Shown piece after piece: positions 3,173 to 52,575 of a DNA stretch of 64,000 nt. Every line of letters begins with the position of its first letter. Position 1 is the stretch's first letter. The notes under the pieces were generated by a model that made no database searches, had not been told where the DNA came from, and saw only the letters and a list, made by a program, of their open reading frames with translations. Location: the NCBI GenBank assembly GCA_963721075.1, contig CAVRHV010000008.1, positions 8,057-72,056 of the forward strand, in the 5' to 3' direction. Source of the stretch: an uncultured Ignavibacteria bacterium. GTDB lineage: Bacteria > Bacteroidota > Ignavibacteria > Ignavibacteriales > Ignavibacteriaceae. Both the position numbers and the translations under genes were made by a program.

Positions 3173-5061
3173 CTACTTCACCAGAAGCATTTTACGGATT
3201 TGTGAATAGTTTCCTGAAGTGAGCCTGTAAAAATATATGCCGCTGGGCAGTGATGAACCATCAAAAGAAATTTCGTATTCGCCCGCACTCATCTCTCTGT
3301 TAAGCAGTACACTGATCTCTCTCCCAAGTACATCATAAATAATGAGTGATGTTTTTTCATAATGCGGAAGAGTAAAACTTATCTTTGTCGATGGATTAAA
3401 AGGATTGGGGTAATTTTGTGCAAGACTGAAATCCAGACTGGAAATTTTCTGATCATCATTACCGGTGACGTTAAAATGTATTTCTTTACTTTTCATTATA
3501 ACCGGATTTTTATCCGCCTCTTCGTACATCCGGCTGAACCTGTTTATGTCCAATGAATTCATTCCGGCAAGGTATTCGGCAACTTCCGGTTTCAGAGTCT
3601 GATAACATACCTCAGCAGTAATATTCATCTCAGATATTTCATTAACCGGTATTCTGTATTTCACAACATCAGTGCCTGTGCCTTCATTCCCGTTAGCTTT
3701 ATTAAAATCAGGGTCATTCACAGCATAACCATATACAGCGGTAGTATCATAACTCGATATGTGATGACTTAAATCCCAGGGGCGGTATTCTGTTATCTTT
3801 GATAAAAGTTGATGCCCTGAGCAGGGTATAGGTTACGTTTCCGTTTATATCTATCGGTACTGCTTCATATACCTGCACTTCATCATCCCGATTTATTACG
3901 TTGTAATGCTTCTCAAATGGAAGATCCATTCCGTTTATCCTGCCTTCAACTGTCCCAGCTTCCCGATTCGAAAATTTTATTATTGTTTTCATCGGAAGCT
4001 TTAAGATGGATCCACATTCTCCTTAAAGGAATTCCGGTCGGAAGTTTGTGTCCTGTTATGTTTTGCAGCTTCACGCTCACGGTCAGCGAATCATTAATCT
4101 GTTCAGCTTCCACATAAAGATTAAGAGAAAGATCTTTAAGATTCCTTTCGGCAAAAGCCAGTGTAGTATCAAAATGACTGGTTTCTGCGGTTACCTGCAG
4201 TGTATCGGGGTAGTCGCGCAGCATCTTCAAAATAAAAGTATTTCCACCGACAAACGTTTCTTTCCAGAAAGGCGATCTGTGTGTAGTGTCCGACTCAGGA
4301 ATTGTGGCAATATCAATAGGATCAAAAATCTTTGGCGAATGGCAGCTTTGACAGGTGACCTGCTGTGCCGGGTAGATACTGTTTTTCCACTCAAGATAGG
4401 GGGTCTGTTCCGGAAAGTCACCGACTATATTGCCTTGCTCATCAAGTGTGGGAGTAAATAAGGTGTGGCATGTCGCGCATAAATCCGAAGTCAGTGATTT
4501 CGGCTCATAAGTAGGAGTATATCCGATAAACTGCTGCATAAAAAATGTATCGGGGTACTCATATGGCCCATAAACCAGACTGTCATCGGTAATTATGTAA
4601 TTACCTGAGTAAGATGACTGCTGCCCGAAGTTCGAAGGATTTATCTGATGGCAGACAGTGCAGCTAACTCCATCATTTGCAAGAGGATCCAGCCTGAGAT
4701 CAGCCATTGTGTATTTGGTGTGACCGTCATATAGAGCCTGGGTATATCCCATCGGAGCATGGCATTTGGTACAAAGCGTCTCAATTGTGTCCTGCAATGA
4801 CGGAAATTCATTCACTTCACCGGAAACCATTGCTCTCCATAAGGGATCTTTGCTGGAATTTGCCATCATAGTTGAACGCCAGTAAGTGGGAGGTGAAATA
4901 TCCACACCATTTAGCGATAATACATCTCCGTTGCCTGTATGGCAGTCGGCACAGTTTCCTGATCCTGAAAATAGAATGGAATTTTCGGTAGGAAGGGGAT
5001 ATTGTCCGAAAGCAGTTCCGATAATAAATTGGATAAGGACCAGAAAGTAAAATATTTTCAT
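3173..5061 (-). pseudogene. multiheme c-type cytochrome with T9SS C-terminal sorting domain, in three frames as assembled
   Basis: Signal peptide. Five CxxCH sites (CADCH, CTKCH, CTVCH, CATCH, CQSCH) in 3946-5061. The continuation '...DNRIPPLGFKSSH' lies in 3747-3992. The tail in 3173-3721 carries 'NYPNPFNPSTKISF...IYDVLGREI'. Frame breaks at about 3946-3992 and 3750-3770. Confidence 0.7.
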
Positions 5062-5764: not shown

Positions 5765-5906
5765 AAACTTCGAAGAAATATGAAGCTGAACTTGGACAAA
5801 TAAAAGATCTCTTAAACGAGGTTGCTGAAAACAGGAATCTCCTTGAGCCCTTCGACCGCTTGAAACAAGCTTGCGAACAGGTCCATTTACAGAAAACAAG
5901 TGACTA

Positions 5907-8558: not shown

Positions 8559-8736
8559 AATTGATGAAAAACTGGTAAAAAGTCCCGGAGACGAAAGAAT
8601 TGTGCTCATTAACAAAAACCAGGCAGCTGAATACTTTTACTTATTTAACCTGATTTAAGGTTATCCGCCTCACCCATTATCCCAACCTTCAATTTCTGTT
8701 TCGCTAATCACAAACATTTATTCTTTTCTTTATTTA

Positions 8737-14343: not shown

Positions 14344-15723
14344 TTAATTTTTTAACTCCTCTTCATGGTAGATAATATTATATTTATTTATGAGTCTGTG
14401 GATTGATCTTCTGTCCAGTCCGCATACCTCTGCGGTCTTCGTTATATTTCCATTATTCTTTTTCAGATGGTGAGTGAGGTATTCGACCTCGAATTTTTCT
14501 AATAACTTTTCTTTTGCTTCTTTGTAGGGAGGATTAAGGAATGATCTGTCGGCGTCACTTTCTTCTCTGGATGCTGGTATCGGAAGGTCAGCTCTTTCAA
14601 CTATGCCGTTTGAGCTGAGGAAATATGCACGACCTATCAGATTCTGAACCTCTCTTACATTTCCCGGCCAGTAATAATTTTTTATAGCTGTTTCGGCTTC
14701 TTTGGAAATGACAGGTACGGGTTTATCGTCGCGTAAACAAAGATCGGCCAGGAAGTGTTTTGCCAGCAGGATAACATCATCCCTTCTTTCCCTCAGAGGA
14801 GGTACATCTATCCTTATTGTATTCAGCCTGTAATACAGATCTTCCCTGAATCTTTTTTCGGCGACTTCTTTTTCAAGGTTTTTATTGGTGGCGGCAATGA
14901 TACGTACATCTATCTCAATCTCATTACTTGCCCCTACTCTGCGGATCTTTCTTTCCTCAAGCATCCTGAGGAGTTTTATCTGAAGTGACAAACTCATATC
15001 GCCGATCTCGTCAAAGAAAAATGTACCCTGGTTCGCAAACTCAAGAAGACCTGGTTTGGTCTTTACAGCCCCGGTGAATGCCCCTCTTTCATGGCCGAAC
15101 AACTCACTCTCAAAAAGATGTTCAGGCAGTGCTCCGCAATTTACGGGCACGAAGGGATTCTTATTCCTTTTACTCATTGTATGAATTGCCCTTGCAATTA
15201 GCTCTTTGCCTGTACCGCTTTCGCCTGTTATAAGAACATTCATATTTCCGGGAGCAATCTTTTTTACATAGCCTATTATCTGCTGCATCTTGCTGCTCTT
15301 ATAGAGAAGTCCCGGTATTTCTGTCCTTACATCTTCATCTTTTAAATCATCCGGCTGTGAACCATTTTGCAGCGCACGCTCAACAGAATCGAACAGTTTC
15401 CTTGAAGTAAATGGTTTCTCCAGAAAATCAAATGCACCGTTCCGCATTGCATCAACGCTGGTTTCAATTGTTCCATATCCGGAAATCATTATAATTTTTG
15501 AATCCGGAAAATTATCCAGGGCTGTTTTAAGAATATCCAGACCGGAATACTCTTTCATTTTAAGATCAGTAATTATAAGATTAAAGCTTTCCTTAGCTAC
15601 TTTATCCATTGCTTTATGATAGTCATCAATCAGCTTTATATCATATTCCTGGTTCCTTGAAAGCAGTTTATTGAGACTATTGAGCATTTCCTGTTCATCA
15701 TCAATAATTAATATTTTTTTCAT
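14344..15723 (-). CDS. sigma-54-dependent response regulator (NtrC family: REC + AAA+ + Fis-type HTH)
   Basis: 'ILIIDDE...DLKM' receiver. 'GESGTGKE' Walker A. 'ESELFGHERGAFTGA' GAFTGA sigma-54 contact loop. C-terminal HTH 'GNITKTAEVCGLDRRSIHRLI'. Confidence 0.92.
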   Translation of the reverse strand: MKKILIIDDEQEMLNSLNKLLSRNQEYDIKLIDDYHKAMDKVAKESFNLIITDLKMKEYSGLDILKTALDNFPDSKIIMISGYGTIETSVDAMRNGAFDFLEKPFTSRKLFDSVERALQNGSQPDDLKDEDVRTEIPGLLYKSSKMQQIIGYVKKIAPGNMNVLITGESGTGKELIARAIHTMSKRNKNPFVPVNCGALPEHLFESELFGHERGAFTGAVKTKPGLLEFANQGTFFFDEIGDMSLSLQIKLLRMLEERKIRRVGASNEIEIDVRIIAATNKNLEKEVAEKRFREDLYYRLNTIRIDVPPLRERRDDVILLAKHFLADLCLRDDKPVPVISKEAETAIKNYYWPGNVREVQNLIGRAYFLSSNGIVERADLPIPASREESDADRSFLNPPYKEAKEKLLEKFEVEYLTHHLKKNNGNITKTAEVCGLDRRSIHRLINKYNIIYHEEELKN

Positions 15724-15725
15724 CT

Positions 15726-17181
15726 TTAATTGCTCTTTCCGTTAAACTTAATTCTGAAGGTAGTCCCTTCTCCTTCATTGCTGACAACAGTTATATCAGC
15801 ATTATGATTTTTACAAATATTTTTAACAATGTAAAGACCAAGACCCGAGCCCTTGCCTCCGGTTTTTGTCGTGAAGAAAGGAGAAAAGATCTGATCTTTG
15901 ATGTTCTCCTTTATTCCGCTTCCACTGTCCTTAACTGAAAGTACATATGAAGAATTTTCAGCATTTAGTGAGATAATCAGACTTCCGTCGCCGTCCATTG
16001 CATCCAGAGAGTTTATCACAAGATTTGTAAGCGCCTGTTCAAGCTGAAGAGCATCTCCGGTTATTATTGCTTTTTCAGGCATTATTGACTTTGACAATTT
16101 AATGTTTTTCTTCTTCAGTATCGGGTTAAGAGTAGTAAGAGTATTTTCAACAACCTCAGAAAGATCTACCTCCCCGAAATTCTTCTCAATTTTTTTACTA
16201 TGCTGAAGTACGTTCTTTGTTATTTCGGATATTTTTTCGGTCTGGCTGAGAATAACGTTTATATCATCCGAATAACCCATAATTTTATTATTCTGTTCGG
16301 CTTCAAATGAAAGGTAATCAGCGCGTGACATAATTATCGCGGTGTGGTTATTAATTTCGTGTGCAGTTTCTGAAGTGAGCTCGCCAAGTGTAATTAGTCT
16401 ATCAGCATGCTGAAGCTGTTCAAAGTGGAGCTTATTTATCTCCTCCTGTGAATCACGAAGTCTGTTCACCATAAGGTTAAAGTTACGGTTAACTGTTCCG
16501 AATTCGTCTTCTCTTTCTACCGCCAGATGAGCCGATAAATTACCCTCCCTTTACCTCTCTCATCGCGAATATTAATTTCTGAAGGGGCTGGTTTATAAAC
16601 GACTGGAAAATGAAATAAAAACCGGCAGTGATAATAAGTAATACTGCAATTCCAAGAAAAATCATATGCCGTGTTCCGGTATAGAACTTTGTCTCAGCCG
16701 GGGTAAGATTCGCTCCGACATCCAGATAGGCAATAATATTTGGGGTATGACAGCTTCGGCATTCAGGCTTATTATAAATCGGGGAAAATGCGTGATACTC
16801 ATTATTCTTAAGCAGATTAATCCTGCCGGATGCAAGTGAATCAGGATTGAGACCAGGATGGATACTCCGAAGTCCCATGCCGATATCTTTCCTGGATGAG
16901 GCATATTTTATCGTGCCGTCAGGACTAATTATTCTGATATGGTCTATTCCCTTCCTTTTGCCGAGATCATCAACCATTGACTGAATATTTTTCTGGTTTC
17001 CCTGCATCATTGCGTTATCGAGGGTATAGTTCATAAGGTTCAGAGTTGTCTCCAGCATCATAACTGAGCGCTGATTGAAATTCTCGCGAAATTGTGAGAT
17101 AAGAAAATATCCCGGGATTACAACGCTTAGAATAATTAAAACAAGAGCAAAGAAAATAAATTTGGTCTTTATGGATTTCAT
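15726..17181 (-). pseudogene. sensor histidine kinase (TM - periplasmic domain with CxxCH - TM - HAMP - HisKA - HATPase), interrupted by one frame break in the HAMP region as assembled
   Basis: ORF 16540-17181 ends '...AMREVKGG*'. Skipping one base at about 16542 continues 'NLSAHLAVEREDEFGTVNRNFNLMVNRL' (HAMP) into ORF 15726-16472, which has 'SETAHEINN' (H-box) and 'GSGLGL' (G2 box). The periplasmic segment contains 'CRSCH'. Confidence 0.8.
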
Positions 17182-17502
17182 ATATATCCCCGAAAAAGTG
17201 CCTTCACTCCTTCAATCTGATTCTGGAAAGTAATTAAATATTAAACAAATCTGAGTTAGAATATTATTGAAAAATTATACAGTTACATTCGAATAAACAC
17301 AGTAATGATAAACTATGCCAAAAAATAATAATGCATTTTTATTCGATTTTATAGGGACATTGATGTCACAGTGGGATATTTCTTTCTCAGTAAAGAGAAG
17401 TTATTCGCATATTAAATAATTTGTTTTGGATAAAAATACGGCAAAAACAGCGAAATTCTTAGAATATGGAGGGGGTTGAGGGGTATCAATCTATTGTAGA
17501 AA

Positions 17503-17517
17503 TGGCATACACATTGA
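17503..17517 (+). promoter_or_regulatory. candidate sigma-54 (-24/-12) promoter
   Basis: TGGCAT-N5-TTGA against consensus TGGCAC-N5-TTGC(A/T). Lies in the divergent region next to an NtrC-type activator. It is only about 13 nt from the annotated ATG and the -12 GC is imperfect. Confidence 0.25.
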
Positions 17518-17530
17518 TATTGCGGGGCTG

Positions 17531-17917
17531 ATGAGAATTGTTACAATTAGTAGTGATACCAGTCTGATAGAGTTGATTGACAAACCCGAAGTCAAGGGAA
17601 AGAATCAACTTCTCGTTTACAACAAAAGCAATGACCTGCTTGATGTGGTCTCATTTATCCATACAAATCATCCTTCGATACTGATCGTAGACGATGATTT
17701 TCTTAAACCCGATACAGCTCATCTCCTGCAAAATGTAAAGAAATTAAATCCCGACATGGCTATCGTATTTATTACCTCAGATTCAGGAATTGAACTGGGT
17801 AAGCAAGTAAGCCAGGTAGGAATACACTTTTATGGCCTGAAGCCTTTAAGTGATAATGAATTAGAAGATTCGATTCGTTCGATTACTAAACTAAAAACAA
17901 CCTTAACTCAATATTAA
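17531..17917 (+). CDS. stand-alone receiver-like (CheY-fold) protein with atypical acidic pocket
   Basis: 'SILIVDDDFLKPD', 'VFITSD' and 'YGLKP' align to REC beta3, beta4 and beta5. The N-terminal DD pair is replaced by 'SSD'. Confidence 0.5.
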   Translation: MRIVTISSDTSLIELIDKPEVKGKNQLLVYNKSNDLLDVVSFIHTNHPSILIVDDDFLKPDTAHLLQNVKKLNPDMAIVFITSDSGIELGKQVSQVGIHFYGLKPLSDNELEDSIRSITKLKTTLTQY

Positions 17918-17932
17918 TCTAATGGGAGAAAA

Positions 17933-19928
17933 GTGATGAAAAAGACGTTGATACTGTTTATGATAGCTTTCAGCACAGTATTACTCTATTCACAGTCTGC
18001 CAAAGTTGTGACATACGGAGTAGATCCCCGTCAGGCGGAAGGAGATAGTACAGATATCTTTGAACTTCCTTATAATGGTCTGACAAACGTTGGTGAAAAT
18101 ACCCAGATGTATCTGGAAGCTATTTTAACCGATGCTACTCTTGATAATCCAACCTGGACTGTAGTAGAACAACCAAATGGTTCTAATCCAGTATTCGGAG
18201 CCAGTGTTAACCTGTCTGACGCAGAACAGGTAATAGAATTCAAACCTGACTTATCAGGTACTTATAAAATTGTTTTTTCAGATGGTTCAGTTTCTTCTGA
18301 TCCTCTGGTAATTAAAGTGGGCTTATATCTCGGATACCAGTATTCTTACCCTGTATTACCGAATCATGCCTGCCAGGATTGCCATGCTGACAAAACAGCA
18401 CAGTGGGAACAGACAGGGCACTATTCAATTTTTGAAGAAGGTTTGAACGGTACCTTAAGCAATCATTATGGACCGACCTGTATAAAATGTCATACAACCG
18501 GTTATGATGCTAATGCAGTTAATAATGGTTTTGATGATTTCGGTTTCGTATTCCCCGATACCTTATTCCCTGGACAATTCGATAATATGGTTGCCCAGTA
18601 TCCTGATGCAATGCTTCGCGCACGTATTCAGTGTGAAAGCTGCCACGGACCAGGAAGTATGCACGTAGGTGCTGCTAATGTAATGTCAGTTACTCTCGAC
18701 GTTCAGAACTGTGCTCTCTGCCACGATGAAGGACACCATGTATATCCGGCTCAATGGAGAGCTTCAGATCATGCTATGTTTGCCAAATCCGGCGGCGAAA
18801 CCAGAGCTTCCTGTGCACAATGTCATGATGGTGCAGGATTTGTTGATTATATCAAAGCAGGAAAAACACCTCCTTCGAGCGACTATTCTGAAGTAACTAA
18901 GATTACCTGTGCAGTCTGCCATGATCCTCACAGTGTTGAGAATCCTCATCAGCTGAGAACAATGACTGCTACTTTAACAAATGGTTATGAAATTACCGGA
19001 GCCGGTAATGGTGCTATCTGTATAAACTGCCACAAAGCCCGTCAGAATGCCGTAGATTATACAAACAATTATCTTAAGTAACTTAAGCACACACTATGGA
19101 CCTCATCATGGTCCCCAGGGTGATTTATTAGTAGGTAAAAATGCTATAACATTCGGTCAGAACATTGAAAGTTCACCGCACTTAGCAGCTACTACCGATG
19201 CATGCGTTAGATGCCATATGTATCCGGCAAGTTCTGATGCAAATGGAAATGTAATCCTGGTAGGTTCACACTCATTCAATATGTCATATGATGGCGTAGA
19301 TAATGTCGCTGCATGCACAGACTGCCACGGTGACTTTGGTCCTAACTTCTCAGATAAGCTTTGCTATATAAACGGTACAGCAGATCTTGACGGCGATGGA
19401 GTTGCTAATGGTCTTCAGATAGAAATTGAAGGCCTGCTTGAACAGCTTCATGATTTACTGCCTCAGGATGGTAATGGTAACGTAGTTATTAACGATTCTT
19501 CTGTAACATTAGCCGAGGCTCAGGCTGCTTATAACTACTTTATGGTAGAAGATGACGGAAGTATGGGCGTACACAATCCAAGATATATATTCGGAATTCT
19601 CAAGGCTTCTATCGAAGCTTTAGGCGGAACAGTAGCTGTTGATTATGCTAAGAGCGATATGCCTGAAGATTTCGTATTGTCACAGAACTATCCTAATCCG
19701 TTCAACCCAACAACTACTATTCAGTATCAGATACCCGAAGGTTCTAATGTAAAAGTAGTTGTTTATGACGCTCTTGGAAAACAGGTAGCCGTTCTGGTTA
19801 ATGAATACCAGGGTGCCGGTTCTTATAAAACAAACTTCAATGCATCTAATCTTGCATCCGGAATCTATTTCTGCAGAATGGAAGCAGGAAGCTTTGTTAA
19901 AGTTAACAAGATGCTTTTACTCAAGTAA
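17933..19928 (+). pseudogene. nine-heme c-type cytochrome with T9SS C-terminal sorting domain (paralogue A). One extra base at about 19076-19079 creates an in-frame TAA
   Basis: Colinear with the intact paralogue at 20117-22087. Has 9 CxxCH (CQDCH, CIKCH, CESCH, CALCH, CAQCH, CAVCH, CINCH, CVRCH, CTDCH). Removing one base restores '...YLNNLSTHYGPHHGPQGD', matching the paralogue's 'YLNNLSTHYGPHHGPQAD'. Tail 'NYPNPFNPTTTIQY'. The likely start is ATG 17936 after GGGAGA. Confidence 0.8.
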
Positions 19929-19962
19929 TATAACTTGAAAATACCTCTGAACTAAGCATACT

Positions 19963-19991
19963 AAGGCTGCTCATTGAGCAGCCTTTTTTTA
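19963..19991 (+). terminator. rho-independent terminator
   Basis: GGCTGCTC (19965-19972) / GAGCAGCC (19976-19983) stem, followed by T7. Confidence 0.8.
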
Positions 19992-20116
19992 TATTCTTCT
20001 GGAACCCACGGTAATATTAATCACACAAACTTCTATCGATTTTTCTGAGATTAACATGCAGATAAATTCAAAATCAATGCAGAATTTAAATAAGAAGCTT
20101 CTTATGGAGACAGGCG

Positions 20117-22087
20117 ATGAAAAAAAAATTGTTACTGTTTATCTTTTTCCTTTCTTCAATACTCATTTTTCCGCAAACCGCACATATTGACACATACGGA
20201 CGCTCCCCTATACAGGTTGATGCCGATTCAACAGATATGTTCAATATACCTTATAATGGTCTTACTAATGTGGGTATATATACGCAAATGTACCTTGAGG
20301 TCAGCATGGATGGTGCGCATTTAACTAATCCGCAGTGGAATGTTATCCAGAAACCCAATGGATCCAATCCTCAATTTGGTACATCAACAAACCTTACCGA
20401 CTCAAATCAGGTAATTATATTTATACCGGATTCCTCGGGAACATATAAAATAGATTTTACAGACGGATCTGTTGCATCTGATACACTTACAATAAATGCA
20501 GGTTTATATTTAGGATATACAGGAGGTATTTTTAAGTGCGGGAGGTGCCACGGTGAAAAGGTGGATGAATGGCAGCAGACCGGTCACTATATGATATTTG
20601 AAGAAGGTCTGAATGGAACTCTCAGCAGCCACTATGGACCCAGCTGTATAAAGTGTCATACTACTGGATATGACGAAAATGCTGATAATAATGGTTTTGA
20701 TGACTTTCCGTTTGTTTTTCCGGATTCTCTCTATCCTGGTGTTTATGACCAGATGGTTGCACAGTATCCTCTGGCAATGCAGCGGGGGAGGATTCAGTGT
20801 GAAAGCTGTCATGGTCCCGGAAGTGAACACTATGGAGCCGCTAATATAATGTCGGTTACTTTAGCAGCTGAAAACTGCGCCTGGTGTCACGACGGCGGAC
20901 ATCATGTTTTCCCCTCACAGTGGAGGATCTCCAAACACGCAACATTTGAACATGGAATGACCAGAGCGGCATGCGCTCAGTGCCATAACGGTGCCGGCTT
21001 CGTGGAATATATTGAATCGGGCAAGCAGCCTATTGCGCAGGATCTTGCAAAGGTTGTACCGATAACCTGTGCAGTTTGCCACGACCCGCATAGTGCTGAG
21101 AATCCTCACCAGCTTAGAACTATGGATGTTACACTTTCTGATGGTGAAACTGTCGAAGGCGGGGGTAATGGTACAATTTGTATGAACTGCCATAAAGCCA
21201 GAGAGGATGCGGTTGAATATACAAACGACTACCTTAATAACTTAAGTACTCATTACGGGCCGCATCATGGCCCGCAGGCAGATATTCTTTCGGCAAAGAA
21301 TGCTGTTACATTTGGACAGAATATTCCCTCATCGCCTCACCTTGCGGCTACGGGTGACGCCTGCGTAACCTGTCATATGTACCCTGGAACGCTGGATCCG
21401 TATGGAGATATAATACTTGTGGGTTCACATACCTTCAGTATGTCACACGACAGCGTTGATAATGTGCAGGCCTGTTCCCCATGTCATGGAGATATAGGAA
21501 ACAGTTTTTCCGATAAGAAGTATTATGTGAATGGAAATGCTGATCTCGACGGTGATGGCGTTGCAAACGGACTACAGATTGAAGTTCAGGGACTTATGAA
21601 TCAGCTTAAGTCAATGCTTCCCCAGGATGGAAACGGTAATGTAGTAGTTAATGATTCATCCGTTACTTTAACACAGGCTCAGGCAGCATACGACTACCTG
21701 ATGGTTGCGGAAGACAGAAGCTACGGTATTCATAACCCGGCTTTCGTATATGGTATTCTGAAAGCTTCAATTGAGGCTCTCGGCGGTGTTGTTGCGGCGG
21801 GAAATGATAATAATCAGCTGCCTCACGATTTTGATCTGGCGCAGAACTATCCTAATCCGTTTAATCCGACTACAACAATAGAGTATAAAGTACCGGAAGC
21901 TTCTAATGTGAAAATTATCGTTTATGATGCACTCGGCAAGCAGGTTGAGGTACTTGTAGACGGTTATCAGAATGCGGGAACATATACACTGAATTTTAAT
22001 GGTTCAAACCTTGCTTCCGGAATATACCTTTGCAGAATGGAGGCAAAAGGTTTTGTCAAGGTTAACAAGATGCTTCTGCTTAAATGA
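20117..22087 (+). CDS. nine-heme c-type cytochrome with T9SS C-terminal sorting domain (paralogue B, intact)
   Basis: Signal peptide. 9 CxxCH (CGRCH, CIKCH, CESCH, CAWCH, CAQCH, CAVCH, CMNCH, CVTCH, CSPCH). C-terminal 'NYPNPFNPTTTIEY...VYDALGKQV'. GGAGA RBS. Confidence 0.9.
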   Translation: MKKKLLLFIFFLSSILIFPQTAHIDTYGRSPIQVDADSTDMFNIPYNGLTNVGIYTQMYLEVSMDGAHLTNPQWNVIQKPNGSNPQFGTSTNLTDSNQVIIFIPDSSGTYKIDFTDGSVASDTLTINAGLYLGYTGGIFKCGRCHGEKVDEWQQTGHYMIFEEGLNGTLSSHYGPSCIKCHTTGYDENADNNGFDDFPFVFPDSLYPGVYDQMVAQYPLAMQRGRIQCESCHGPGSEHYGAANIMSVTLAAENCAWCHDGGHHVFPSQWRISKHATFEHGMTRAACAQCHNGAGFVEYIESGKQPIAQDLAKVVPITCAVCHDPHSAENPHQLRTMDVTLSDGETVEGGGNGTICMNCHKAREDAVEYTNDYLNNLSTHYGPHHGPQADILSAKNAVTFGQNIPSSPHLAATGDACVTCHMYPGTLDPYGDIILVGSHTFSMSHDSVDNVQACSPCHGDIGNSFSDKKYYVNGNADLDGDGVANGLQIEVQGLMNQLKSMLPQDGNGNVVVNDSSVTLTQAQAAYDYLMVAEDRSYGIHNPAFVYGILKASIEALGGVVAAGNDNNQLPHDFDLAQNYPNPFNPTTTIEYKVPEASNVKIIVYDALGKQVEVLVDGYQNAGTYTLNFNGSNLASGIYLCRMEAKGFVKVNKMLLLK

Positions 22088-24433: not shown

Positions 24434-26033
24434 TTATTCGGTTATCTCAATTTTTTGCGCGTTCTTCTTTTTATGGTATTTAAGAAAGAACAGCGGAATT
24501 AGAATTAATAGTGTTATAAGAGCACCCATAAGAAAGTCATCGTCGATGCCTCTTACGAAAGCCTGTGAAGAGATGTTCTGGATTATTAGTCCTTTTGCTT
24601 TCGCCATAAGCTCCGTGCCGGAACCGCCCGTAGTTTGTTGAACAAAACTTCTCAAACCGTAAAGTGTATGCTGAAAAGCCGTTGATGACTGATCAGCTGC
24701 CTGGCTGAACATAGCCGAATGGAAAATTACTCTCCTTGTAAGGAGAGTACCAAGGATTGCAACTCCAAAACTTCCTCCCACCTGCCTGATAGTATTGAAT
24801 AACCCTGTAGCCTGTGCCATTTTTTCCCGGGAGATATCGTTTATTGCTATCGTGCTTAACGGGATGAACATAAAACCAAGTCCGAAGCCTCTGATTATAA
24901 GGGGAACCATCAGCGTCCAGTACTCGGTGTCAAGAGTCAGATCTTTATAAAGATACATGCTGAGGAATGTCAGAACTATTCCGATGAAGATAGGTATTTT
25001 GGGATTGAGCTTGTCGGTCATCCATCCGGCTACGGGAGACATAAACATCATTATGAGTCCTACCGGTAGAAACATAAGACCAGTCTGGAATGCAGTGTAT
25101 CCGAGCGAATTCTGAAGATACAGGGGAAGCAGAAATGAATTTCCGAAGAAAGCCAGTCCGAATATAAAGAGCATAATATTCGCCATTCCGAAGTTTCGGT
25201 TTTTAAGGATCCTCAGGTCAATTATCGGGTGTTTAACTGTAAGCTCGGTGGTAAGGAAAACCACAAAACTTACGAAGGCGATTCCGAAACAGGTAAGAAT
25301 GAAATTCGATGTCCATCCCCCGGTATTCCAGGAAGCATTGCCGTCAGATAATGCCAGCAGAAGGAATACAAGAAATGTTGTCATCGAAACGAAACCAAGA
25401 AGATCAAATGACCTTGCGCTTTCTGTTTTGTATTCTCTCAGTATTACTAAAGTTGCAAGCATTGCAAAAATCCCGATAGGTACGTTCACATCAAATATTG
25501 CATGCCAGCTGAACGTATCTATTAAATAGCCTCCGAGCAGGGGACCAAGTGAGACAGAAGAAGAAGATGCAATACCCCAGAAACCGAGAGCCATTCCTCT
25601 TTTCTCAGGCGGAAATTCATGCGTTATGATTGACATACCTACCGGCATAATGAAGCCAGCTCCGGCGCCCTGTAGAATCCTGAACATTATCAGCATATTT
25701 TCATTGGAACTGAGAGAGCAGAAGAGCGAACCTGAAGTAAACAGGAACAATCCCAGCAGATACGATTTCTTATGACCCCAGTGATCGGCAATCCAGCCCG
25801 ACGAAGGGAAGAACAACCGCAAAAACCAGCAGGTATGCAGTTAATACCCACTCAATCTTATCGACACTTGTACCGAAAGCCGACATCATTTTGGTCAGTC
25901 CGACGTTCACGATGGTTGCATCAAGCACGGCCATAAACGTCCCGATCATAATGTTGGCAAGGACAAACCACCGGTATGACGGATGATCCTGAAGACCAAG
26001 GCCTCCCGAATTATTTCTGAAATTACCGGCCAT
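24434..26033 (-). pseudogene. DHA2/EmrB-type MFS drug efflux transporter (14-TM class), one frame break near 25805 as assembled
   Basis: ORF 25770-26033 gives 'FMAVLDATIVNVGL...WVLTAYLLVFAVVLP'. ORF 24434-25822 continues 'SSGWIADHWGHKKSYLLGL...'. The join is seamless if one base is skipped. Confidence 0.85.
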
Positions 26034-27033
26034 TATTTTGCTGCCTTAATTTTTACTTCAACAGACATTCCGGGAAGTAGTCTGAAGTCCTTTTTAGAAA
26101 CATTCTCGGGATGAATAGATATTTTTATAGGTATACGCTGGGTAATCTTTGTAAAGTTGCCGGCGGCATTCGAAGGAGGTATCAATGCAAACTGCGAAGC
26201 AGTGTTTGAACCAATCTGCAGAACGTTCCCATCGAACTTATGATCCGGATATGAATCAACATCTATCTCAACATCCGCTCCTTCTTTAATGGCGGCAAGA
26301 TCGGTCTCCTGGAAATCAGCCGTTACCCAGATACTGTCCAGGTTATAGATTGAAAGAATAGGCTGACCGGGCTGCACTACATCACCCTTCAGCACCCACC
26401 TCTTTGCAACAACCCCGCTCATAGGAGAGTATATCTCCGTATTATTCAGCTGCGTATTTATAACATTAAGCTGAGCTTTGGCTGTTCCTATTTTAGTATT
26501 TGCAATATTGAATTCTGCTTTTGCCGCCTCAAGAGCACTCTGTGAATGTTCATACTGCTCTTTGGGAATTATATTTCCTTCGAACTGCTGCTTCGCTCTC
26601 TGAAAGTCCTGCTCAGCTTTGTTAAGGTTAACTTTTGCCAGCTGGATGTTGTCGTTAGCCAGCTTAAGCGCATTAACTGCCTGCTCGCGCTGCGCTATAA
26701 GGTCGGTAGAATCAAGGCGAACCAGCAATTCACCTTTTTGAACATTATCACCTTCGTCTGCATAGAGAGCAGTTACCCTGCCGAGCATTTTAGAGGCCAG
26801 CGAGAGTTTATCACCGTCGATGAATGCATCGTCGGTAGAGACAAATCCCAGTTGTCCCTTATACCAGAACCAGAAGATGACGCCTGCGCTACTATGATAA
26901 AAAACGGTATCCAGATTCTCTTCTGCTTAAATATTGAACCTGATTTTGGCTTTTCTCCATTCAGATTCCTGCCGTCTGCAGGTGTTTTTCCGGCTCCTGT
27001 TTTTAACTGTTCTGTTTCAGTGTTAACTGCCAT
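26033..27033 (-). pseudogene. HlyD/EmrA-type membrane fusion protein, one frame break near 26888 as assembled
   Basis: The N-terminal frame ends '...IPFFIIVA'. The other frame continues 'GVIFWFWYKGQLGFVSTDDAFIDGDKLSLASKMLGRVTALYADEGD...' (classical EmrA lipoyl, hairpin and barrel regions). Its stop overlaps the EmrB start (TAATG). Confidence 0.85.
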
Positions 27034-29633: not shown

Positions 29634-30977
29634 ATGGATGCAGTTCTGCTTGCGCGTCTGCAATTTGCACTTACAGTGGGGTTTCACTTCTTCTTTCCGC
29701 CGATTACTATAGGTTTATCGTGGCTGCTGGTTATAGTTGAAACTATCGGCTGGAAAAGAAAGAACGAGATTTATCAGCAAATAGGGAAATTTTTTGCCAA
29801 ACTGCTTGCCATTACGTTTGCTGTCGGTGTAGCGACAGGTATCGTAATGGAATTTCAGTTCGGCACTAACTGGTCAGAGTATTCAAAATTCGTAGGTGAT
29901 ATATTCGGTGCTCCCCTGGCGGCGGAAGGCGTTTTTGCTTTCTTCCTGGAATCAGGATTTTTAGGACTATACCTTTTTGGAAGAGAGAGAGTATCAAAAG
30001 GAGTCCATTGGTTTTCTGCCCTGATGGTTGCGGTTGGTTCAACGATATCGGCATTCTGGATTATCGTTGCAAACAGCTGGCAGCAGACTCCGGCAGGATT
30101 TATTGTACAGAACGGCAGAGCCGAACTCACCAGCTTCGCCGATGCAGTTTTTAATGCTTCTACTCTCATAAGATTTTTTCACACTTTCGATGCTGCTTTA
30201 ATTGCCGGTGCTTTTTTTATGGCGGGTATCTCTGCCTGGTATCTTCTTAAGAAGAGAAATACCGAAATATTCAGATCATCTCTTAAAACCGCTGTCATCT
30301 TCGGATTGGTAGTCTCATTGCTTGAACTTTTCCCGTTCGGACACGAGCACGCAAAACAGGTGGCTCATACCCAGCCCGAAAAATTTGCCGCAATCGAAGG
30401 TCTTTACACCTCTGCGGAAGGAGCTCCCCTGGTAATGTTTGCTGTTCCTACTACACCTCCTCCCCAGCTTCACGGAACAATCGAGATTCCCGGAATGCTC
30501 AGCTGGATGGCCTTCGGAGATGTTAATGCAAAGATCCCGGGCATAAATGAATTTCCAAAAGAAAATCTTCCGCCGCTCTGGTTAACTTTCGTATCATTCC
30601 ACAACATGGTTGTACTGGGAATCCTGTTCATCCTGATCATGCTCTGGGCCGTATGGTCGCTTTACAGGAAGACGATCTGGGAAAACAAAAAGCTGCTTAA
30701 AGTTTTACTCTGGGCTATACCTTTTCCGCTGTTTGCCTGTCAGCTCGGCTGGATTACAGCTGAGGTTGGCCGACAGCCGTGGATAGTTTATAAACTTTTA
30801 AGAACAAGTGAGGCTGCTTCCATAACTGTCCCGGCCGGTAATATTCTCTTTTCAATAATAATGTTCGGATTGATATACATCGTACTCGGAATTTTATATG
30901 TCTATCTGATTGTAAGGGAAGTTAAACATGGACCTGCCCTTCTTAATACCAAAGGAGAAAAGGAGGTGGCCGCGTAA
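29634..30977 (+). CDS. cydA: cytochrome bd-type quinol oxidase subunit I
   Basis: '[23 protein letters not shown]', '[16 protein letters not shown]' and 'EVGRQPW' are CydA signatures. Confidence 0.95.
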
Positions 30978-31994
30978 TGGACTTAAATACAATATGGTTT
31001 CTTCTTGTTGCAGTTTTGTTGGTCGGCTATGCAATCCTTGACGGATTCGATCTTGGCGTGGGAGTTCTTCATCTTTTCACCAAAAGTGAAGAAGAGAAAA
31101 GAATAAATATTAATGCAATTGGTCCCGTATGGGATGGTAACGAAGTCTGGCTTCTGACCGGCGGCGGTGCCTTGTTTGCTGCCTTCCCGGTAGTTTATGC
31201 CACTGTATTCAGCGGATTTTATCTCGCTTTAATGCTTCTGCTTTTTGCGTTGATCTTCCGCGCTGTTTCTTTTGAGTTCAGAGGTAAGGTTGAAAGTGAA
31301 AGATGGAAAAGAACATGGGATACGGCTTTCGGATCTGGGCAGTTTGCTTCCTGCGGTATTATTCGGTGTAGCGGTAGGAAATATTTTGAGAGGTATTCCT
31401 ATTGATGCAAACGGAATGTTTACCGGTACCTTCTTTACGCTGCTTAATCCTTATTCCATTCTTGTGGGTGTTCTCAGTCTTGTTCTCTTTACGATGCATG
31501 GCTCCATCTATATGACAATGAAGACTTCAGATAAGCATCTGGAAAAAATGAAAAACATTGCACCCCGTTTATGGATAGCATTCGTGTCATTATACGTGCT
31601 CACAACAATATATTCATTTTTTGAAGCAGGATATCTTTTTGAATCAGTATTGAGCAGTCCTTTGTTCTGGATCCTGTTTATTGTAATGCTCGCCGCTGTT
31701 ATTTATATCCCTGTTGCTCTCAAATCGGAAAAGTTCGGGCGCGCATTCTTTGCTTCATCATTAACGATCGCCTGTATGATGGGACTGATGGCAGTCAGTC
31801 TTTTCCCGAGACTTGTGCCCTCACTTACTGACCTGGCAAACAGTCTCACTATTTACAATGCTTCATCAACCGAGAGAACATTGTTTACAATGCTTATTAT
31901 AGCTCTTATAGGAATGCCCTTTGTAATCGGATATACAATATTTATATACAGGGTATTCAAAGGTAAAGTTCAGCTGGGAGAGCATAGCTACTAA
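30977..31994 (+). pseudogene. cydB: cytochrome bd-type quinol oxidase subunit II, one extra base near 31340 as assembled
   Basis: '[12 protein letters not shown]...WDGNEVWLL' is in the first frame. '...TAFGSG' then continues as '[20 protein letters not shown]' in ORF 31272-31994. The start overlaps the cydA stop. Confidence 0.9.
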
Positions 31995-35879: not shown

Positions 35880-36013
35880 ACTAAAATAAACTCATGCGAG
35901 ATAAATCACCCGGTACAGTAGGAAATATGTTTTATTTTATTGCCGGCTCCCGGGAAAGTGAAAAAGAATTGTTTGAGAAAAAATCCTTTAATGAAAAATA
36001 AACAGGTAATCTT

Positions 36014-41383: not shown

Positions 41384-43945
41384 ATGAAAGGTGTCAATAC
41401 AGTCATACGATGGTGGGTGGGATTTCTATCCATCATTCTTTTCCAATCGGCTTTGTTCGCTCAAAGCGGTATAAACGATATAGGCGGCTTTGAGCAGACC
41501 CTGCCCTCATACTGGAATATGACGTCAGCCCCTTCAGGTGCAACACTAACCTGGGCAACTGACGAATATCGTTCAATGGGTAAATCGCTGAAGATTGAAA
41601 AAACAGCCACAACAGACTCAGCTATGTGGCAATCGGATAATATGGTTGACCTCTGGTCGCAGAGACATTATGCTAATGTCGATATAAAGCTCGGAATGTA
41701 CTATATGACCTCAGGGGTAAATACCAATCCTGTCAATGAGGATGAGAAGTGGTATGTAGCTTATACATTCTATGACAGCTTAGATGCTGTGATAGGAGAA
41801 AAGAAATTTGAGCTGGATCAGAGCGTAGCCAGCACGAGCGGCTGGGTAGCAGATACCACAGCAATAGGAGAAGTTATACTACCGGAGGATGCATTCAAGA
41901 CGATCATCAGGTTTGTAGGAGGAAAGAATGCAACCGGAACCGTATGGACAGATGACTATATATTCGTAGGAAGAAACGGAGGTTGGGCAGGACAGGACTG
42001 GAACACAGCAGTAGGAGTGCCGACAGGCTGGTTCTACTGGCTGCCGCCGATCGGAGGAAATGATGGCGTATTAAATGCAGGATATGAAAATACAGTTGTT
42101 ACTGATGAGTATGCACATACAGGTAATTATTCGCTTAAATTTGATATTCCTGAAGGTTCGCATGACGGCTTTGTCGGAACAATTAAATATGCTCTTGATG
42201 ATGCACAGCCGGGCGATGTTCTGAGAATAAGTGTCTGGGTTAAGGGCGCTAATCTGGAGCCCGATTCTGTAATTGCAGTAGGTGATGCCTGGAGTGTTTC
42301 ACTTACAGCAATCTACCATACTACTATGGGAAATAATGCAGGGTTCGGAGATTATGCAGCCAGCCCTGACATCCCGCTCCAGTTCCCTCAAGCTACTGAA
42401 TTCGATTGGAGAAAGTTTTATGTCGATGTAACAATACCGGATCCTCCGGCTGGTGAGACAGCAAAATCGATTTCAGTAAGACTTCATCCTCTCGGCAGAT
42501 TCTCAGGTACTGTCTGGATGGATGATCTCCATATTGAAAAACTGGATCTTCCGGATCTCAATTCTATCGGAAGTTTCGAACAGGATCTTCCTTCATACTG
42601 GAATAAAGGTTCTGAGCCTGAGAATTCAACACTAACCTGGGCAACTGACGAATATCGTTCAATGGGTAAATCGCTGAAGATTGAAAAAACAGCCACAACA
42701 GACTCAGCTATGTGGCAATCGGATAATATGGTTGACCTCTGGTCGCAGAGACATTATGCTAATGTCGATATAAAGCTCGGAATGTACTATATGACCTCAG
42801 GGGTAAATACCAATCCTGTCAATGAGGATGAGAAGTGGTATGTAGCTTATACATTCTATGACAGCTTAGATGCTGTGATAGGAGAAAAGAAATTTGAGCT
42901 GGATCAGAGTGTAGCCAGCACGAGCGGCTGGGTAGCAGATACCACAGCAATAGGAGAAGTTATACTACCGGAGGATGCATTCAAGACGATCATCAGGTTT
43001 GTAGGAGGAAAGAATGCAACCGGAACCGTATGGACAGATGACTATATATTCGTAGGAAGAAACGGAGGCTGGGCAGGACAGGACTGGAACACAGCAGTAG
43101 GAGTGCCGACAGGCTGGTTCTACTGGCTGCCGCCGGTCGGAGGAAATGATGGTGTATTAAATGCAGGATATGAAAATACAGTTGTAACTGATGAATATGC
43201 ATACGATGGAAATTACTCGCTTAAATTTGATATCCCTGTCGGATCGCATGACGGCTTTGTGGGAACCAAAAAATTTACACTTGGTGATATTCAGCCAGGA
43301 GATGCGATAAGAGTAAGTGTCTGGGTTAAGGGCGCTAATCTGGAGCCCGATTCCGCAATTGCAGTAGGTGATGCCTGGAGTGTTTCACTTACAGCAATCT
43401 ACCATACTACTATGGGAAATAATGCAGGGTTCGGAGATTATGCAGCCAGCCCTGACGTACCACTCGAGTTCCCATATGCAACTGAGTTTGATTGGATGCA
43501 GTATCATGTTGATTTGATTGTGCCTGATCCCCCGGCTGGAGAAACGGCAAAGGCAATTTCAGTCAGATTACATCCGCTTGGAAGATTTTCCGGTACTGTA
43601 TGGATGGATTTACTTGAGGTAACAAAGGTTCCCGTCGGAGTTACCGAAGGAAAAGAATTCCAGCCTGTATCGTATAATTTATTCCAGAATTATCCGAACC
43701 CGTTCAATCCCACTACTATCATAAGCTACTCAATACCTAAAGTATCTCACGTTACTTTGAAGATATATGATATACTGGGTAGAGAGGTTAAAACTTTGGT
43801 GAGCGCTGATCAGAATAATGGAATCCATAGAGTTCAATGGAATGGAGACAATAACTATGGAACCAGAGTTTCCAGCGGTATATACCTCTACAGGATTGAA
43901 GCAGGTGATTTCATACAAACGAAGAAAATGATCCTGATTAAATAA
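41384..43945 (+). CDS. secreted surface protein made of two about 362-aa tandem modules (CBM-like jelly-roll suspected) plus a T9SS C-terminal sorting domain
   Basis: Signal peptide. Internal duplication. Tail 'NYPNPFNPTTIISY...IYDILGREV'. Confidence 0.85.
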   Translation: MKGVNTVIRWWVGFLSIILFQSALFAQSGINDIGGFEQTLPSYWNMTSAPSGATLTWATDEYRSMGKSLKIEKTATTDSAMWQSDNMVDLWSQRHYANVDIKLGMYYMTSGVNTNPVNEDEKWYVAYTFYDSLDAVIGEKKFELDQSVASTSGWVADTTAIGEVILPEDAFKTIIRFVGGKNATGTVWTDDYIFVGRNGGWAGQDWNTAVGVPTGWFYWLPPIGGNDGVLNAGYENTVVTDEYAHTGNYSLKFDIPEGSHDGFVGTIKYALDDAQPGDVLRISVWVKGANLEPDSVIAVGDAWSVSLTAIYHTTMGNNAGFGDYAASPDIPLQFPQATEFDWRKFYVDVTIPDPPAGETAKSISVRLHPLGRFSGTVWMDDLHIEKLDLPDLNSIGSFEQDLPSYWNKGSEPENSTLTWATDEYRSMGKSLKIEKTATTDSAMWQSDNMVDLWSQRHYANVDIKLGMYYMTSGVNTNPVNEDEKWYVAYTFYDSLDAVIGEKKFELDQSVASTSGWVADTTAIGEVILPEDAFKTIIRFVGGKNATGTVWTDDYIFVGRNGGWAGQDWNTAVGVPTGWFYWLPPVGGNDGVLNAGYENTVVTDEYAYDGNYSLKFDIPVGSHDGFVGTKKFTLGDIQPGDAIRVSVWVKGANLEPDSAIAVGDAWSVSLTAIYHTTMGNNAGFGDYAASPDVPLEFPYATEFDWMQYHVDLIVPDPPAGETAKAISVRLHPLGRFSGTVWMDLLEVTKVPVGVTEGKEFQPVSYNLFQNYPNPFNPTTIISYSIPKVSHVTLKIYDILGREVKTLVSADQNNGIHRVQWNGDNNYGTRVSSGIYLYRIEAGDFIQTKKMILIK
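41470..43630 (+). repeat. intragenic tandem duplication, period 1086 bp
   Basis: 41541... and 42627... read identically for hundreds of bases. I saw only three substitutions in the first about 520 bp. Divergence increases toward the 3' part of each unit. Confidence 0.9.
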
Positions 43946-48229: not shown

Positions 48230-48252
48230 CCGATTTTTTTATTGGAGTAAGA

Positions 48253-51504: not shown

Positions 51505-51537
51505 TGAGATCTTTCAAATTTATTGCAAGAGGATGCC

Positions 51538-52575
51538 ATGCGTAATCTGTCTCATTTAACAATGATTTTAATAGCGCTGATTTGTTTATTCAGCGAAAGG
51601 GATATCTATTCCCAAAATGTTTCAAAGACCGGTACCACTGCAGCTGCATTCCTTGAGATAGGGGTTGGAGCTGCGGCGAACGGAATGGGCGGTGCATTCG
51701 TCGGCCGTGCTGATGACGCTTCAGCGCTTTACTGGAATGTCGCGGGTATTGCCTCCAGATCCCGCAACGAAGTAGTGCTGGTTCATACGAACTGGATTGC
51801 AGATACCAGGTTTGATTTTGCAGGTTTGGTTCTGAATCTGGGTGACTTCGGAAATATCGGGTTGAGCTTTACATCGCTATCTATGTCTGACATGAAGGTG
51901 AGAACTGTCCAACAGCCGGAGGGAACTGGGGAATATTTCAGTGCCGGTGATATTGCAGTCGGGCTTTCATATGCAAGATATCTTACCGACAGATTTTCGG
52001 TAGGTCTTACAGCAAAATATATTCAGCAGTCTATCTGGCATATGAATGCTACCGCTTTTGCGATCGATGCAGGAACCATTTTCAGAACCGATCTTCTTGG
52101 CGGTCTAACCATAGGAGCCGTACTGTCAAATTTTGGAACACCTATGCGCATGCAGGGCAGGGATGCAAGATATTTTATCAGGGTTGATGAAACGAAGCAG
52201 GGATCGAACGACAATATACCTGTGAATATAGATCTTGATTCCTGGGATCTTCCGCTCTATTTCCAGATTGGTGTTTCTACACCTGTATTAAATGAAGATG
52301 ATTATAAAATGTATGTATCTGCTGATGCCCTTGTTCCGAATAACGACTACCAGAGCCTGAATGTGGGCGCGGAATTTACCTTTATGGATATTTTATCTCT
52401 TCGGGGCGGGTATAATTCTTTGTTCCTGAAAGATTCTGAAGGAGGTTTATCGCTCGGGGTAGGAGTAAATTCGCAGATGCTTTTGAGTGTAGCCACCGTT
52501 TATTTCGATTATGCTTTCAGAGATTTCGGACGACTCGATAATGTACATAATTTTTCAATCGGAATAAGGTTTTAA
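51538..52575 (+). CDS. PorV/PorQ (UPF0164)-family outer-membrane beta-barrel protein
   Basis: 'GTTAAAFLEIGVGAAANGMGGAFVGRADDASALYWNVAGIA' is the family's N-terminal signature. Alternating barrel pattern with terminal 'FSIGIRF'. ATG 51538 follows AAGAGGA. The ORF-track start is 51523. Confidence 0.75.
   Translation: MRNLSHLTMILIALICLFSERDIYSQNVSKTGTTAAAFLEIGVGAAANGMGGAFVGRADDASALYWNVAGIASRSRNEVVLVHTNWIADTRFDFAGLVLNLGDFGNIGLSFTSLSMSDMKVRTVQQPEGTGEYFSAGDIAVGLSYARYLTDRFSVGLTAKYIQQSIWHMNATAFAIDAGTIFRTDLLGGLTIGAVLSNFGTPMRMQGRDARYFIRVDETKQGSNDNIPVNIDLDSWDLPLYFQIGVSTPVLNEDDYKMYVSADALVPNNDYQSLNVGAEFTFMDILSLRGGYNSLFLKDSEGGLSLGVGVNSQMLLSVATVYFDYAFRDFGRLDNVHNFSIGIRF

Follow-up and report, generated by a model that had tools for sequence, protein, structure and literature searches.

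A stretch of 64,000 nucleotides from an uncultured Ignavibacteria bacterium (contig CAVRHV010000008.1; the whole stretch is called the window here) carries two adjacent, colinear genes for multiheme c-type cytochromes, gene 1 and gene 2, whose products end in a domain of the kind that addresses proteins to a type IX secretion system (T9SS). Gene 2 is intact and its product is 100% identical to a database protein (P0001), while gene 1 is split by a frameshift and was compared in reconstructed form. Nine CxxCH sites are present in gene 2 (residues 141, 177, 228, 254, 286, 318, 355, 416, and 453), and reconstructed gene 1 also has nine, at colinear positions. Alignment of the two proteins over 663 columns gives 67.6% identity, and the DNA of the genes gives 67.5%. 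A first-pass annotation of the sequence had described paralogues of about 70% identity with a signal peptide, a beta-rich N-terminal module of about 125 residues and nine CxxCH sites each, all of which was borne out. We think it probable, with considerable room for doubt, that gene 1 and gene 2 encode nonaheme cytochromes of the OcwA type that are cargo of the T9SS and perform redox work outside the cell.

When 69 homologues are aligned, each Cys and His column of the CxxCH motifs is either invariant or conserved to at least 99%. When the whole window was translated in six frames, more than one CxxCH was found solely in gene 1, gene 2, and a gene at 3173-5061, and the repetition of the motif in these genes is not a chance pattern. 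The N-termini of the pair resemble Sec signals by inspection, with MKKK followed by a hydrophobic stretch, and cleavage is predicted before Q20. This residue is invariant in the 69 homologues, which is consistent with the Q-rule that has been reported for 77% of the signal peptides of Ignavibacterium album (PMC5837995). A lipobox Cys is not present near the predicted cleavage region, where a Q follows the hydrophobic core. In the full-length AlphaFold2 (AF2) model of gene 2 (mean predicted local distance difference test score, pLDDT, 88.4; predicted template modelling score, pTM, 0.75) residues 21-129 form an all-beta module. PKD models match the equivalent N-terminal region of distant relatives, and a Foldseek search with the full-length model returned only immunoglobulin (Ig)-like, filamin, and S-layer domains with E-values of at least 3e-3.

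Both curated hidden Markov models (HMMs) assign the C-terminal domain of the two paralogues to the type-A T9SS sorting domains, as the first-pass annotation had proposed from the sequence of the tail. PF18962 gave 41.8 bits for gene 2 and 47.0 bits for gene 1 (curated cut-off 27), TIGR04183 gave 39.9 and 47.7 bits (curated cut-off 23), and the matches end at residue 652 of 656 in gene 2 and at residue 660 of 664 in gene 1. Seven beta strands are predicted by AF2 between residues 573 and 653 of gene 2, after a low-confidence linker (563-566), in agreement with the compact seven-strand (3+4) Ig-like beta-sandwich described for T9SS tails (PMC11285876). Across the 69 homologues, with identities down to 48%, 15 tail residues are invariant, including N577, P579-P584, G607, G621, S634, G635, Y637, K651, and M652. 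The motif N[YF]PNPF[NS]P stands near the C-terminus in 117 of the 120 nearest homologues, and the three without it look like fragments judging by their length.

From the tail, the first-pass annotation had deduced both export across the outer membrane and attachment to the cell surface. Export stands as the reading of the signal, but attachment is not a necessary consequence. Judging from the fates of T9SS cargo in Flavobacterium and Porphyromonas, a type-A tail does not itself dictate attachment. The mature cytochrome may be anchored at the surface or be released into the medium, both outcomes being equally possible.

The heme core of the pair is related to surface cytochromes of Gram-positive metal reducers. 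A profile of the core matched OcwA (6i5b_A) in the PDB in five collinear segments (E 4.4e-16, 61.5 bits), OmhA (6qvm) with E 1.2e-9 and NrfA (2j7a) with E 1.2e-9 over profile positions 424-578. The AF2 model of the core alone (pLDDT 89.5, pTM 0.86) ends in three long helices, and Foldseek again placed 6i5b on top (E 4.4e-8, probability 1.00, 405 columns, template modelling (TM) scores 0.49/0.44), with 6qvm at E 4e-7 (TM 0.52) and NrfA at about 1e-2. The match to OcwA was not recovered with the full-length model, for which only the Ig-like domain matches appeared. The domain architecture, the HMM membership, the conservation of the tail and this fold relationship are established.

OcwA (TherJR_2595 of Thermincola potens) is a cell-surface terminal reductase made up of a domain that binds the hemes plus a bundle of three helices, which reduces solid acceptors, shuttles, and, slowly, nitrite (PMC6703420). 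Like the pair, OcwA carries all nine hemes on CxxCH motifs and has a three-helix bundle on the C-terminal side of its globular heme domain; unlike the pair, it belongs to a Gram-positive host and has neither a T9SS tail nor an N-terminal Ig/PKD-like domain. In OcwA hemes 2 and 5 have an open site and heme 9 has His-Met ligation, a pattern on which the heme-free models of the pair do not bear either way. In the 69 homologues ten His residues outside the motifs are conserved and three Met residues are invariant, which would be enough in number to ligate nine hemes, the ligation itself not being readable from a heme-free model. OmhA, a predicted secreted undecaheme cytochrome of Carboxydothermus ferrireducens that is upregulated on ferrihydrite (PMC7829351), is a relative by profile and by fold and is linked to ferrihydrite respiration; it differs from the pair in having eleven hemes and no T9SS tail, and the title of its PDB entry describes a Gram-positive S-layer protein. 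OcwA was placed in a clade with nonahemes of Gram-negative bacteria (PMC7829351). The family of gene 1 and gene 2 may belong to this clade or lie close to it.

Two better known families were considered and rejected. NrfA and the octaheme nitrite reductases are homologous to the pair in the C-terminal heme and helical region, but the catalytic CxxCK heme of NrfA is missing from the pair and from all 69 aligned homologues, and the pair adds extra hemes, the N-terminal Ig-like domain, and the T9SS tail. The Pfam model Cytochrom_C552 (PF02335) reaches 20.1 bits with gene 1, under its cut-off of 24.1, and gene 2 is not listed. For one nine-heme, tail-bearing homologue (P0060) the source gives the name 'ammonia-forming cytochrome c nitrite reductase subunit c552', which looks over-annotated given that the family lacks CxxCK and stays below the Pfam cut-off. 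Membership in the OmcA/MtrC family (TIGR03507) fails with 21 bits, far under the cut-off of 209.3, and there is no lipobox; only the generic model PF22113 (MtrC/MtrF domain II/IV) passes, with 42.4 bits for gene 2 and 53.5 bits for its paralogue (cut-off 30). MtrC and OmcA of Shewanella share with the pair the proposed role of a surface multiheme terminal reductase in a diderm. However, these decahemes are exported as lipoproteins through a type II secretion system (T2SS), whereas the pair has nine hemes, a signal peptidase I (SPase I) signal with Q at +1 and a T9SS tag, and no MtrAB-like genes were found adjoining gene 1 or gene 2.

The layout of the pair, a Sec signal, functional domains, and a terminal TIGR04183 domain, is that of known type-A T9SS cargo such as gingipains, ChiA of Flavobacterium, or the glycoside hydrolases of Melioribacter that contain carbohydrate-binding modules (CBM). 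The difference lies in the cargo, which in the pair is a redox protein loaded covalently with nine hemes. The T9SS is able to handle folded cargo. In Melioribacter the TIGR04183-type tail is carried by carbohydrate-active enzymes (CAZymes), and the genome paper ties the tail to CAZymes only (PMC3534657).

Gene 1 is not a single ORF in the window: it has a one-base insertion near 19078, which the first-pass annotation had overlooked. The first frame ends at the TAA at 19079-19081 and the remainder continues in the +1 frame up to 19928; the true start is likely the ATG at 17936. Removal of one base from 'CTTAAG[T]AAC' gives a protein of 664 amino acids. In a DNA alignment the extra base is absent from two related contigs (L001 and L002), and both gene 1 and gene 2 are whole in these genomes. 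The frame switch was located by tblastn at 19074-19075, where orthologues read YL(K/R/N/D)NLS. Uninterrupted orthologues of gene 1 are known at 94% (P0025) and 97.4% identity (P0273).

The same kind of damage is found throughout the window: about 24 genes were compared with orthologues by tblastn, and 8 of them are split by frameshifts. The affected genes are gene 1, cydB, the third cytochrome gene (with two frame switches), and those for the histidine kinase, a major facilitator superfamily (MFS) transporter, an HlyD-family protein, a helicase, and a protein of 176 aa. Since so many genes are split alike and a 97%-identical relative has gene 1 whole, the break is most likely a consensus indel error of the assembly and not a true pseudogene. 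That gene 1 is a true pseudogene and gene 2 alone is functional, a view that bears on the status of gene 1 only, is unlikely. It would agree with the deposited 96-kb contig, which has the same break and a 236-aa fragment (P0275) annotated beside P0001, and with the position of the inserted base outside any long homopolymer. However, the frequency of frameshifts in the window is in keeping with consensus indel errors, 284 codons remain open past the break with 95.8% identity to the orthologue, and the whole orthologue at 97.4% identity exists. A programmed +1 frameshift at 'AAG TAA C' was rejected, because the orthologues have no extra base and seven other genes of the window are split similarly; moreover, the P-site tRNA would presumably be unable to re-pair after the slip. 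Broken genes in this assembly should not be taken as biology. Overall, the first-pass observation is partly confirmed: the features that it described are real, and gene 1 is frameshifted in the window.

Table 1 Coordinates of the cytochrome genes, their domains and neighbouring features in the window (aa, amino acids; ORF, open reading frame)
Feature	Position	Strand	Basis or remark
Gene 1, paralogous nonaheme T9SS cytochrome, split	17933..19928	+	ORFs 17933..19081 and 19218..19928
Gene 1 lesion, one-base insertion AAG[T]AAC giving a TAA stop and a +1 frameshift	19076..19081	+	Sequence, alignment, tblastn
Gene 1 T9SS type-A C-terminal domain, residues 586-660 after reconstruction	19689..19913	+	PF18962, TIGR04183
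Gene 2, nonaheme c-type cytochrome with T9SS type-A C-terminal domain	20117..22087	+	Single uninterrupted 656-aa ORF
Gene 2 signal peptide, residues 1-19	20117..20173	+	Sequence MKKKLLLFIFFLSSILIFP, predicted cut precedes Q20
Gene 2 N-terminal Ig/PKD-like beta-sandwich, residues 21-129	20177..20503	+	AF2 strands, weak Foldseek matches
Gene 2 heme core (nine CxxCH, residues 141-457) and C-terminal three-helix bundle (about 486-554)	20510..21796	+	Profile, AF2, Foldseek
Gene 2 T9SS type-A C-terminal domain, residues 573-653	21833..22075	+	Residues 578-652 matched by the HMMs
Terminator-like hairpin between gene 1 and gene 2	19963..19985	+	10-bp stem, 6 GC pairs, T run
Small receiver-like protein, 128 aa	17531..17917	+	PF00072 29.5 bits, just under cut-off 30.2
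Sigma-54-like -24/-12 element TGGCATACACATTGA, weak	17503..17517	+	Identical in L001 and L002
Near-palindrome GGGACATTGATGTCAC, candidate activator binding site	17354..17369	+	Motif also in L001 and L002
Sensor histidine kinase, one CxxCH (CRSCH) in predicted periplasmic domain	15726..17181	-	Split, one-base insertion at 16543
Sigma-54-dependent response regulator (receiver, AAA+, HTH_8)	14344..15723	-	PF00158 242.5 bits, PF00072 84.7 bits
Third T9SS-tailed cytochrome, five CxxCH, split into three frames	3173..5061	-	Tail 47.8 bits
Fourth T9SS type-A cargo gene, 853 aa, no hemes	41384..43945	+	TIGR04183 47.7 bits, PF18962 30.6 bits
PorV/PorQ-family outer-membrane protein	51523..52575	+	NF033709 208.4 bits (cut-off 90), PF19572 34.2 bits
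Frameshift-split stretches other than gene 1	3173-5061, 5378-5904, 8524-8655, 15726-17181, 24437-26033, 26036-27033, 30977-31991		tblastn

The heme core is the centre of a large family. A query with the core only, lacking the tail, was run against 1.84 billion cluster representatives; it matched 407 clusters at E<=1e-30, a number that rises to 1352 at E<=1e-10 and to 2346 at E<=1e-3. Of the 150 top-scoring representatives, 69 end in the tail and 81 lack it, its absence being frequent among the more distant relatives. The tail-less group includes 10 proteins with a lipobox, 11 with a recurring 'F[YF]RV...P' end, and several that are fragments. Ends of the form '...F[YF]RV(x)3-5P' were noted in P0123, P0155, P0159, P0179, P0185, P0187, P0200, P0214, P0218, P0241, P0247, and P0263, and other tail-less relatives end in 'DYP..LRGPV...W..Y'. 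These alternative motifs could be other, lineage-specific signals for sorting or anchoring, and one heme module with different address tags by lineage would fit a surface role.

Tail-bearing members come from sources labelled Ignavibacteriaceae, Ignavibacterium, Melioribacteraceae, Calditrichaceae, KSB1, and Bacteroidota, and tail-less relatives occur in metagenome-assembled genomes (MAGs) labelled Deltaproteobacteria and Chromatiaceae. In the public databases these proteins already occur, under automatic names such as 'hypothetical protein' or 'T9SS type A sorting domain-containing protein'. Six homologues of 1055-1098 aa (P0013, P0033, P0047, P0062, P0067, and P0085) are 18-heme fusions of two cores with a single T9SS tail and correspond, in fused form, to the two genes of the tandem. 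At two other Ignavibacteria loci (L088, 238-6968; L089, 5195-14720) two or three tailed nonaheme genes form arrays that are followed directly by a cellulase gene of glycoside hydrolase family 9 (GH9). Further cellulase and esterase genes lie nearby, and the GH9 gene of L088 is also T9SS-tailed. These arrays may be linked to the breakdown of polysaccharides.

Gene 1 and gene 2 are not the only T9SS cargo genes of the window, which holds four genes with a type-A tail in total, the others being the five-heme gene and the 853-aa gene. The five-heme gene corresponds to the third, broken T9SS multiheme cytochrome of the first-pass annotation and was indeed found in three frames with its tail present. 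As a paralogue of the tandem pair it was rejected: it has five hemes and shares no more than 24% identity with gene 2 in its heme part, and it belongs to a different family. An uninterrupted 631-aa orthologue exists in L003 (PF18962 43.9 bits).

The sole T9SS-associated component within the 64-kb window is the PorV/PorQ-family gene, which scores below the equivalog cut-offs for PorV (70.5 vs 250) and PorQ (90.8 vs 220). It lies in a cluster (45527-54127) together with a gene for a TonB-dependent receptor-like protein, a gene for a solute-binding protein and genes for two proteins of 1083 and 506 aa without a family match, and may belong to a substrate-uptake locus instead of the core secretion machinery. 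In the Ignavibacteriota a T9SS may be present according to genomic and BLAST evidence (PMC11285876; PMC5837995).

Tail-bearing ORFs are plentiful in loci of related genomes, these loci having been chosen by the tail motif itself. Among about 120 such ORFs, a rough sample from loci chosen by the tail motif alone, a single one has at least four hemes, and on this count multiheme proteins appear to be rare among T9SS cargo. In a profile search of genome contigs with the family alignment the tail pattern NYPNPFNP predominated, and the matches listed were mostly unrelated T9SS cargo, from which the taxonomic spread of the cytochrome could not be read. A T9SS-type tail with 46% identity to residues 529-656 was also seen on a 4.7-kb contig in a 'Candidatus Heimdallarchaeota' MAG (L081, 1969-3540), which is probably mis-binned bacterial DNA.

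Upstream of the pair lies a set of regulatory genes. The receiver-like gene ends 16 bases before the gene 1 ORF, and a gene of this kind (128-129 aa) precedes the cytochrome also in L001, L002, and the Calditrichaceae-labelled loci L085 and L086; between the two lineages the receiver-like protein retains 26% identity (E 4e-12). The gene for the sigma-54-dependent regulator adjoins the kinase gene in all four of these loci, both being divergent from the cytochrome. The four-gene module of kinase, sigma-54 activator, receiver-like protein and cytochrome thus recurs (window 14344-17917, L001 6439-9982, L085 6301-9921). The kinase orthologue in L001 is unbroken (484 aa) with CRNCH at 141, and the kinase of L085, 37% identical overall, has CHTCH at 144. 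The presence of a CxxCH at the same position in both lineages suggests that the kinase is a heme-c sensor.

The intergenic region upstream of the receiver-like gene has one copy of a palindrome of the form GGGACA-N4-TGTC(C/A)C, and L085 has two copies of GGG(A/G)CA-N4-TGTCCC; its counterpart regulatory elements lie at 9300, 9389, and 9480. A sigma-54-like element stands in the same region and has a counterpart in L085 (TGGCAC-N5-ATGT; shared form TGGCA(C/T)). Matches of this type number 36 in the window against 39 expected by chance, and the element is not significant alone. It is a weak lead that draws on its position and on the shared palindrome. The neighbouring heme-containing sensor kinase and the sigma-54 activator probably control the expression of the cytochrome. 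Since a strong terminator-like hairpin separates gene 1 from gene 2, the paralogues may be transcribed separately. Further downstream are genes for a cytochrome bd oxidase (29634-31994, cydB split) and for a NorB-type nitric oxide reductase (35424-38293), the N-terminal part of NorB lying seemingly in a separate ORF; with these the organism also has oxygen- and nitric oxide-linked respiration.

We propose the following pathway, in which the steps of export, the place where the protein ends up, its substrates, and its regulation are deduced from sequence and comparison. The precursor would be exported by Sec and its signal peptide cut before Q20, and in the periplasm nine hemes would be attached covalently and the protein would fold. 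The T9SS would then recognise the C-terminal beta-sandwich and move the folded holo-protein across the outer membrane, where the tail would be removed and the cytochrome either anchored at the surface or released. Outside the cell the heme chain could trade electrons with Fe(III) or Mn(IV) minerals, humics, shuttles, or electrodes, and an OcwA-like action on some soluble oxyanions is possible in addition.

The first-pass annotation had suggested that the tail opens a route for extracellular electron transfer different from those of Shewanella and Geobacter. This interpretation is partly supported. In its favour, the best solved relatives, OcwA and OmhA, are surface terminal reductases, but a T9SS-exported cytochrome is not a replacement for a porin-cytochrome conduit. 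The T9SS is an alternative to the T2SS for placing the cytochrome and does not itself carry electrons across the outer membrane. Since the protein is placed outside without electrons being moved, a separate conduit would still be required. A porin-cytochrome cluster was not found within the 64-kb window; clusters of the OmbB-like type have been reported in Ignavibacteria (PMC7399161). Members of this class are reported to occur on anodes, to be rich in multiheme cytochromes, and to increase when wastewater plants receive Fe(III) (PMC7399161; PMC11495043).

Several points weigh against this proposal. The likeness to OcwA is remote, with 19% identity and a TM score of about 0.5, the model is heme-free, and with such a model a catalytic role would still be compatible. 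On the deposited sequence gene 1 counts formally as a pseudogene. The core T9SS genes (porK/L/M/N, sov/sprA, and porU) were not seen within the 64-kb window, which is too short to decide on their presence. In related loci PorU was sought among seven large tail-bearing ORFs, none of which matched, and an ORF of 3090 aa tried as a candidate for SprA gave no match either. Finally, no gene for a porin-cytochrome, a periplasmic cytochrome, or a quinol dehydrogenase adjoins the cytochromes, whether in the window or in the eight related loci that were looked at, with the one exception of a tail-less 578-aa multiheme protein in L085.

The heme core would also be compatible with exported redox enzymes that act on soluble substrates, such as nitrite, hydroxylamine, or other oxyanions, or in detoxification, and not on minerals or electrodes. 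The core belongs to the superfamily of NrfA, octaheme nitrite reductases and OcwA, one homologue (P0060) bears the name of a nitrite reductase subunit, and OcwA itself reduces both nitrite and hydroxylamine, albeit with a very slow turnover of nitrite (kcat 1 per minute) (PMC6703420). Nevertheless, we regard a dedicated enzyme of this kind as rather improbable. The CxxCK heme is absent in the 69 homologues, the Cytochrom_C552 match stays below its cut-off (20.1 vs 24.1 bits), the conserved His and Met residues are enough for six-coordinate hemes, and soluble oxyanions reach the periplasm, so that export of the enzyme would bring no obvious benefit.

For a terminal reductase the electrons would leave the cell, and the nearest characterised relatives, OcwA and OmhA, do serve the reduction of external acceptors. 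Together with the reported occurrence of Ignavibacteria on anodes and under Fe(III) dosing, and with the lack of a Cyc2-like or MtoA-like gene nearby, this makes it quite doubtful that the pair works inwards, with Fe(II), cathodes, or, in interspecies electron transfer, partner cells as the source of electrons, even though multiheme chains are reversible in principle, the sequence does not fix the direction and the window encodes the cytochrome bd oxidase and the NorB-type reductase as possible electron sinks. It is very improbable that the tail plays no part in secretion, be it for lack of a T9SS or through inactivity of the tail, and that the proteins are ordinary periplasmic electron carriers: core T9SS genes were not seen in the 64-kb window, but the tail is more conserved than the protein average (15 invariant positions), is kept in 117 of 120 homologues, occurs in four genes beside a PorV/PorQ-family gene within 64 kb, and is abundant in ORFs of related loci, though these were picked by the tail motif.

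The reading that we prefer is that of OcwA-type cytochromes exported by the T9SS for extracellular redox work. We found no open-access paper that links the T9SS to multiheme cytochromes; subscription-only literature was outside the search, and an earlier mention is possible there. The multi-omics paper on Melioribacter does not mention secretion, sorting, surface, multiheme, extracellular, outer membrane, ferrihydrite, or porin, and a survey from 2024 that predicted extracellular and outer-membrane multiheme proteins in Bacteroidota MAGs, taken to include Ignavibacteria, leaves the T9SS unmentioned (PMC11495043). New here is a probable OcwA-type surface reductase with a T9SS address, which extends known principles and overturns none.

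Taking the lineage labels met in the Fibrobacteres-Chlorobi-Bacteroidetes (FCB) group, namely Ignavibacteria, Calditrichaceae, KSB1, and Bacteroidota, we tentatively put forward a wider idea, for which the chances seem somewhat less than even: the T9SS could be the standard route by which this group places terminal electron-transfer cytochromes outside the cell. OcwA-type modules, single, in tandem, or fused to 18 hemes, would be exported folded with their hemes and fixed at the surface, and their expression would be set by a heme-c kinase and a sigma-54 activator.

If true, this would be a third export route for extracellular respiration, beside the lipoprotein/T2SS route and the anchoring in Gram-positive walls and S-layers. 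It would also mean that the T9SS is able to carry large, cofactor-loaded redox proteins, and that one ancestral cytochrome module was fitted with lineage-specific address tags. Anodes, iron-rich sediments, and Fe(III)-dosed wastewater plants are places where Ignavibacteria and their relatives are common, and their access to external acceptors has so far been discussed via porin-cytochrome genes only. For these organisms the 407 clusters matched at E<=1e-30 offer a candidate family of surface or secreted terminal reductases, which can be recognised by nine CxxCH motifs and a TIGR04183 tail.

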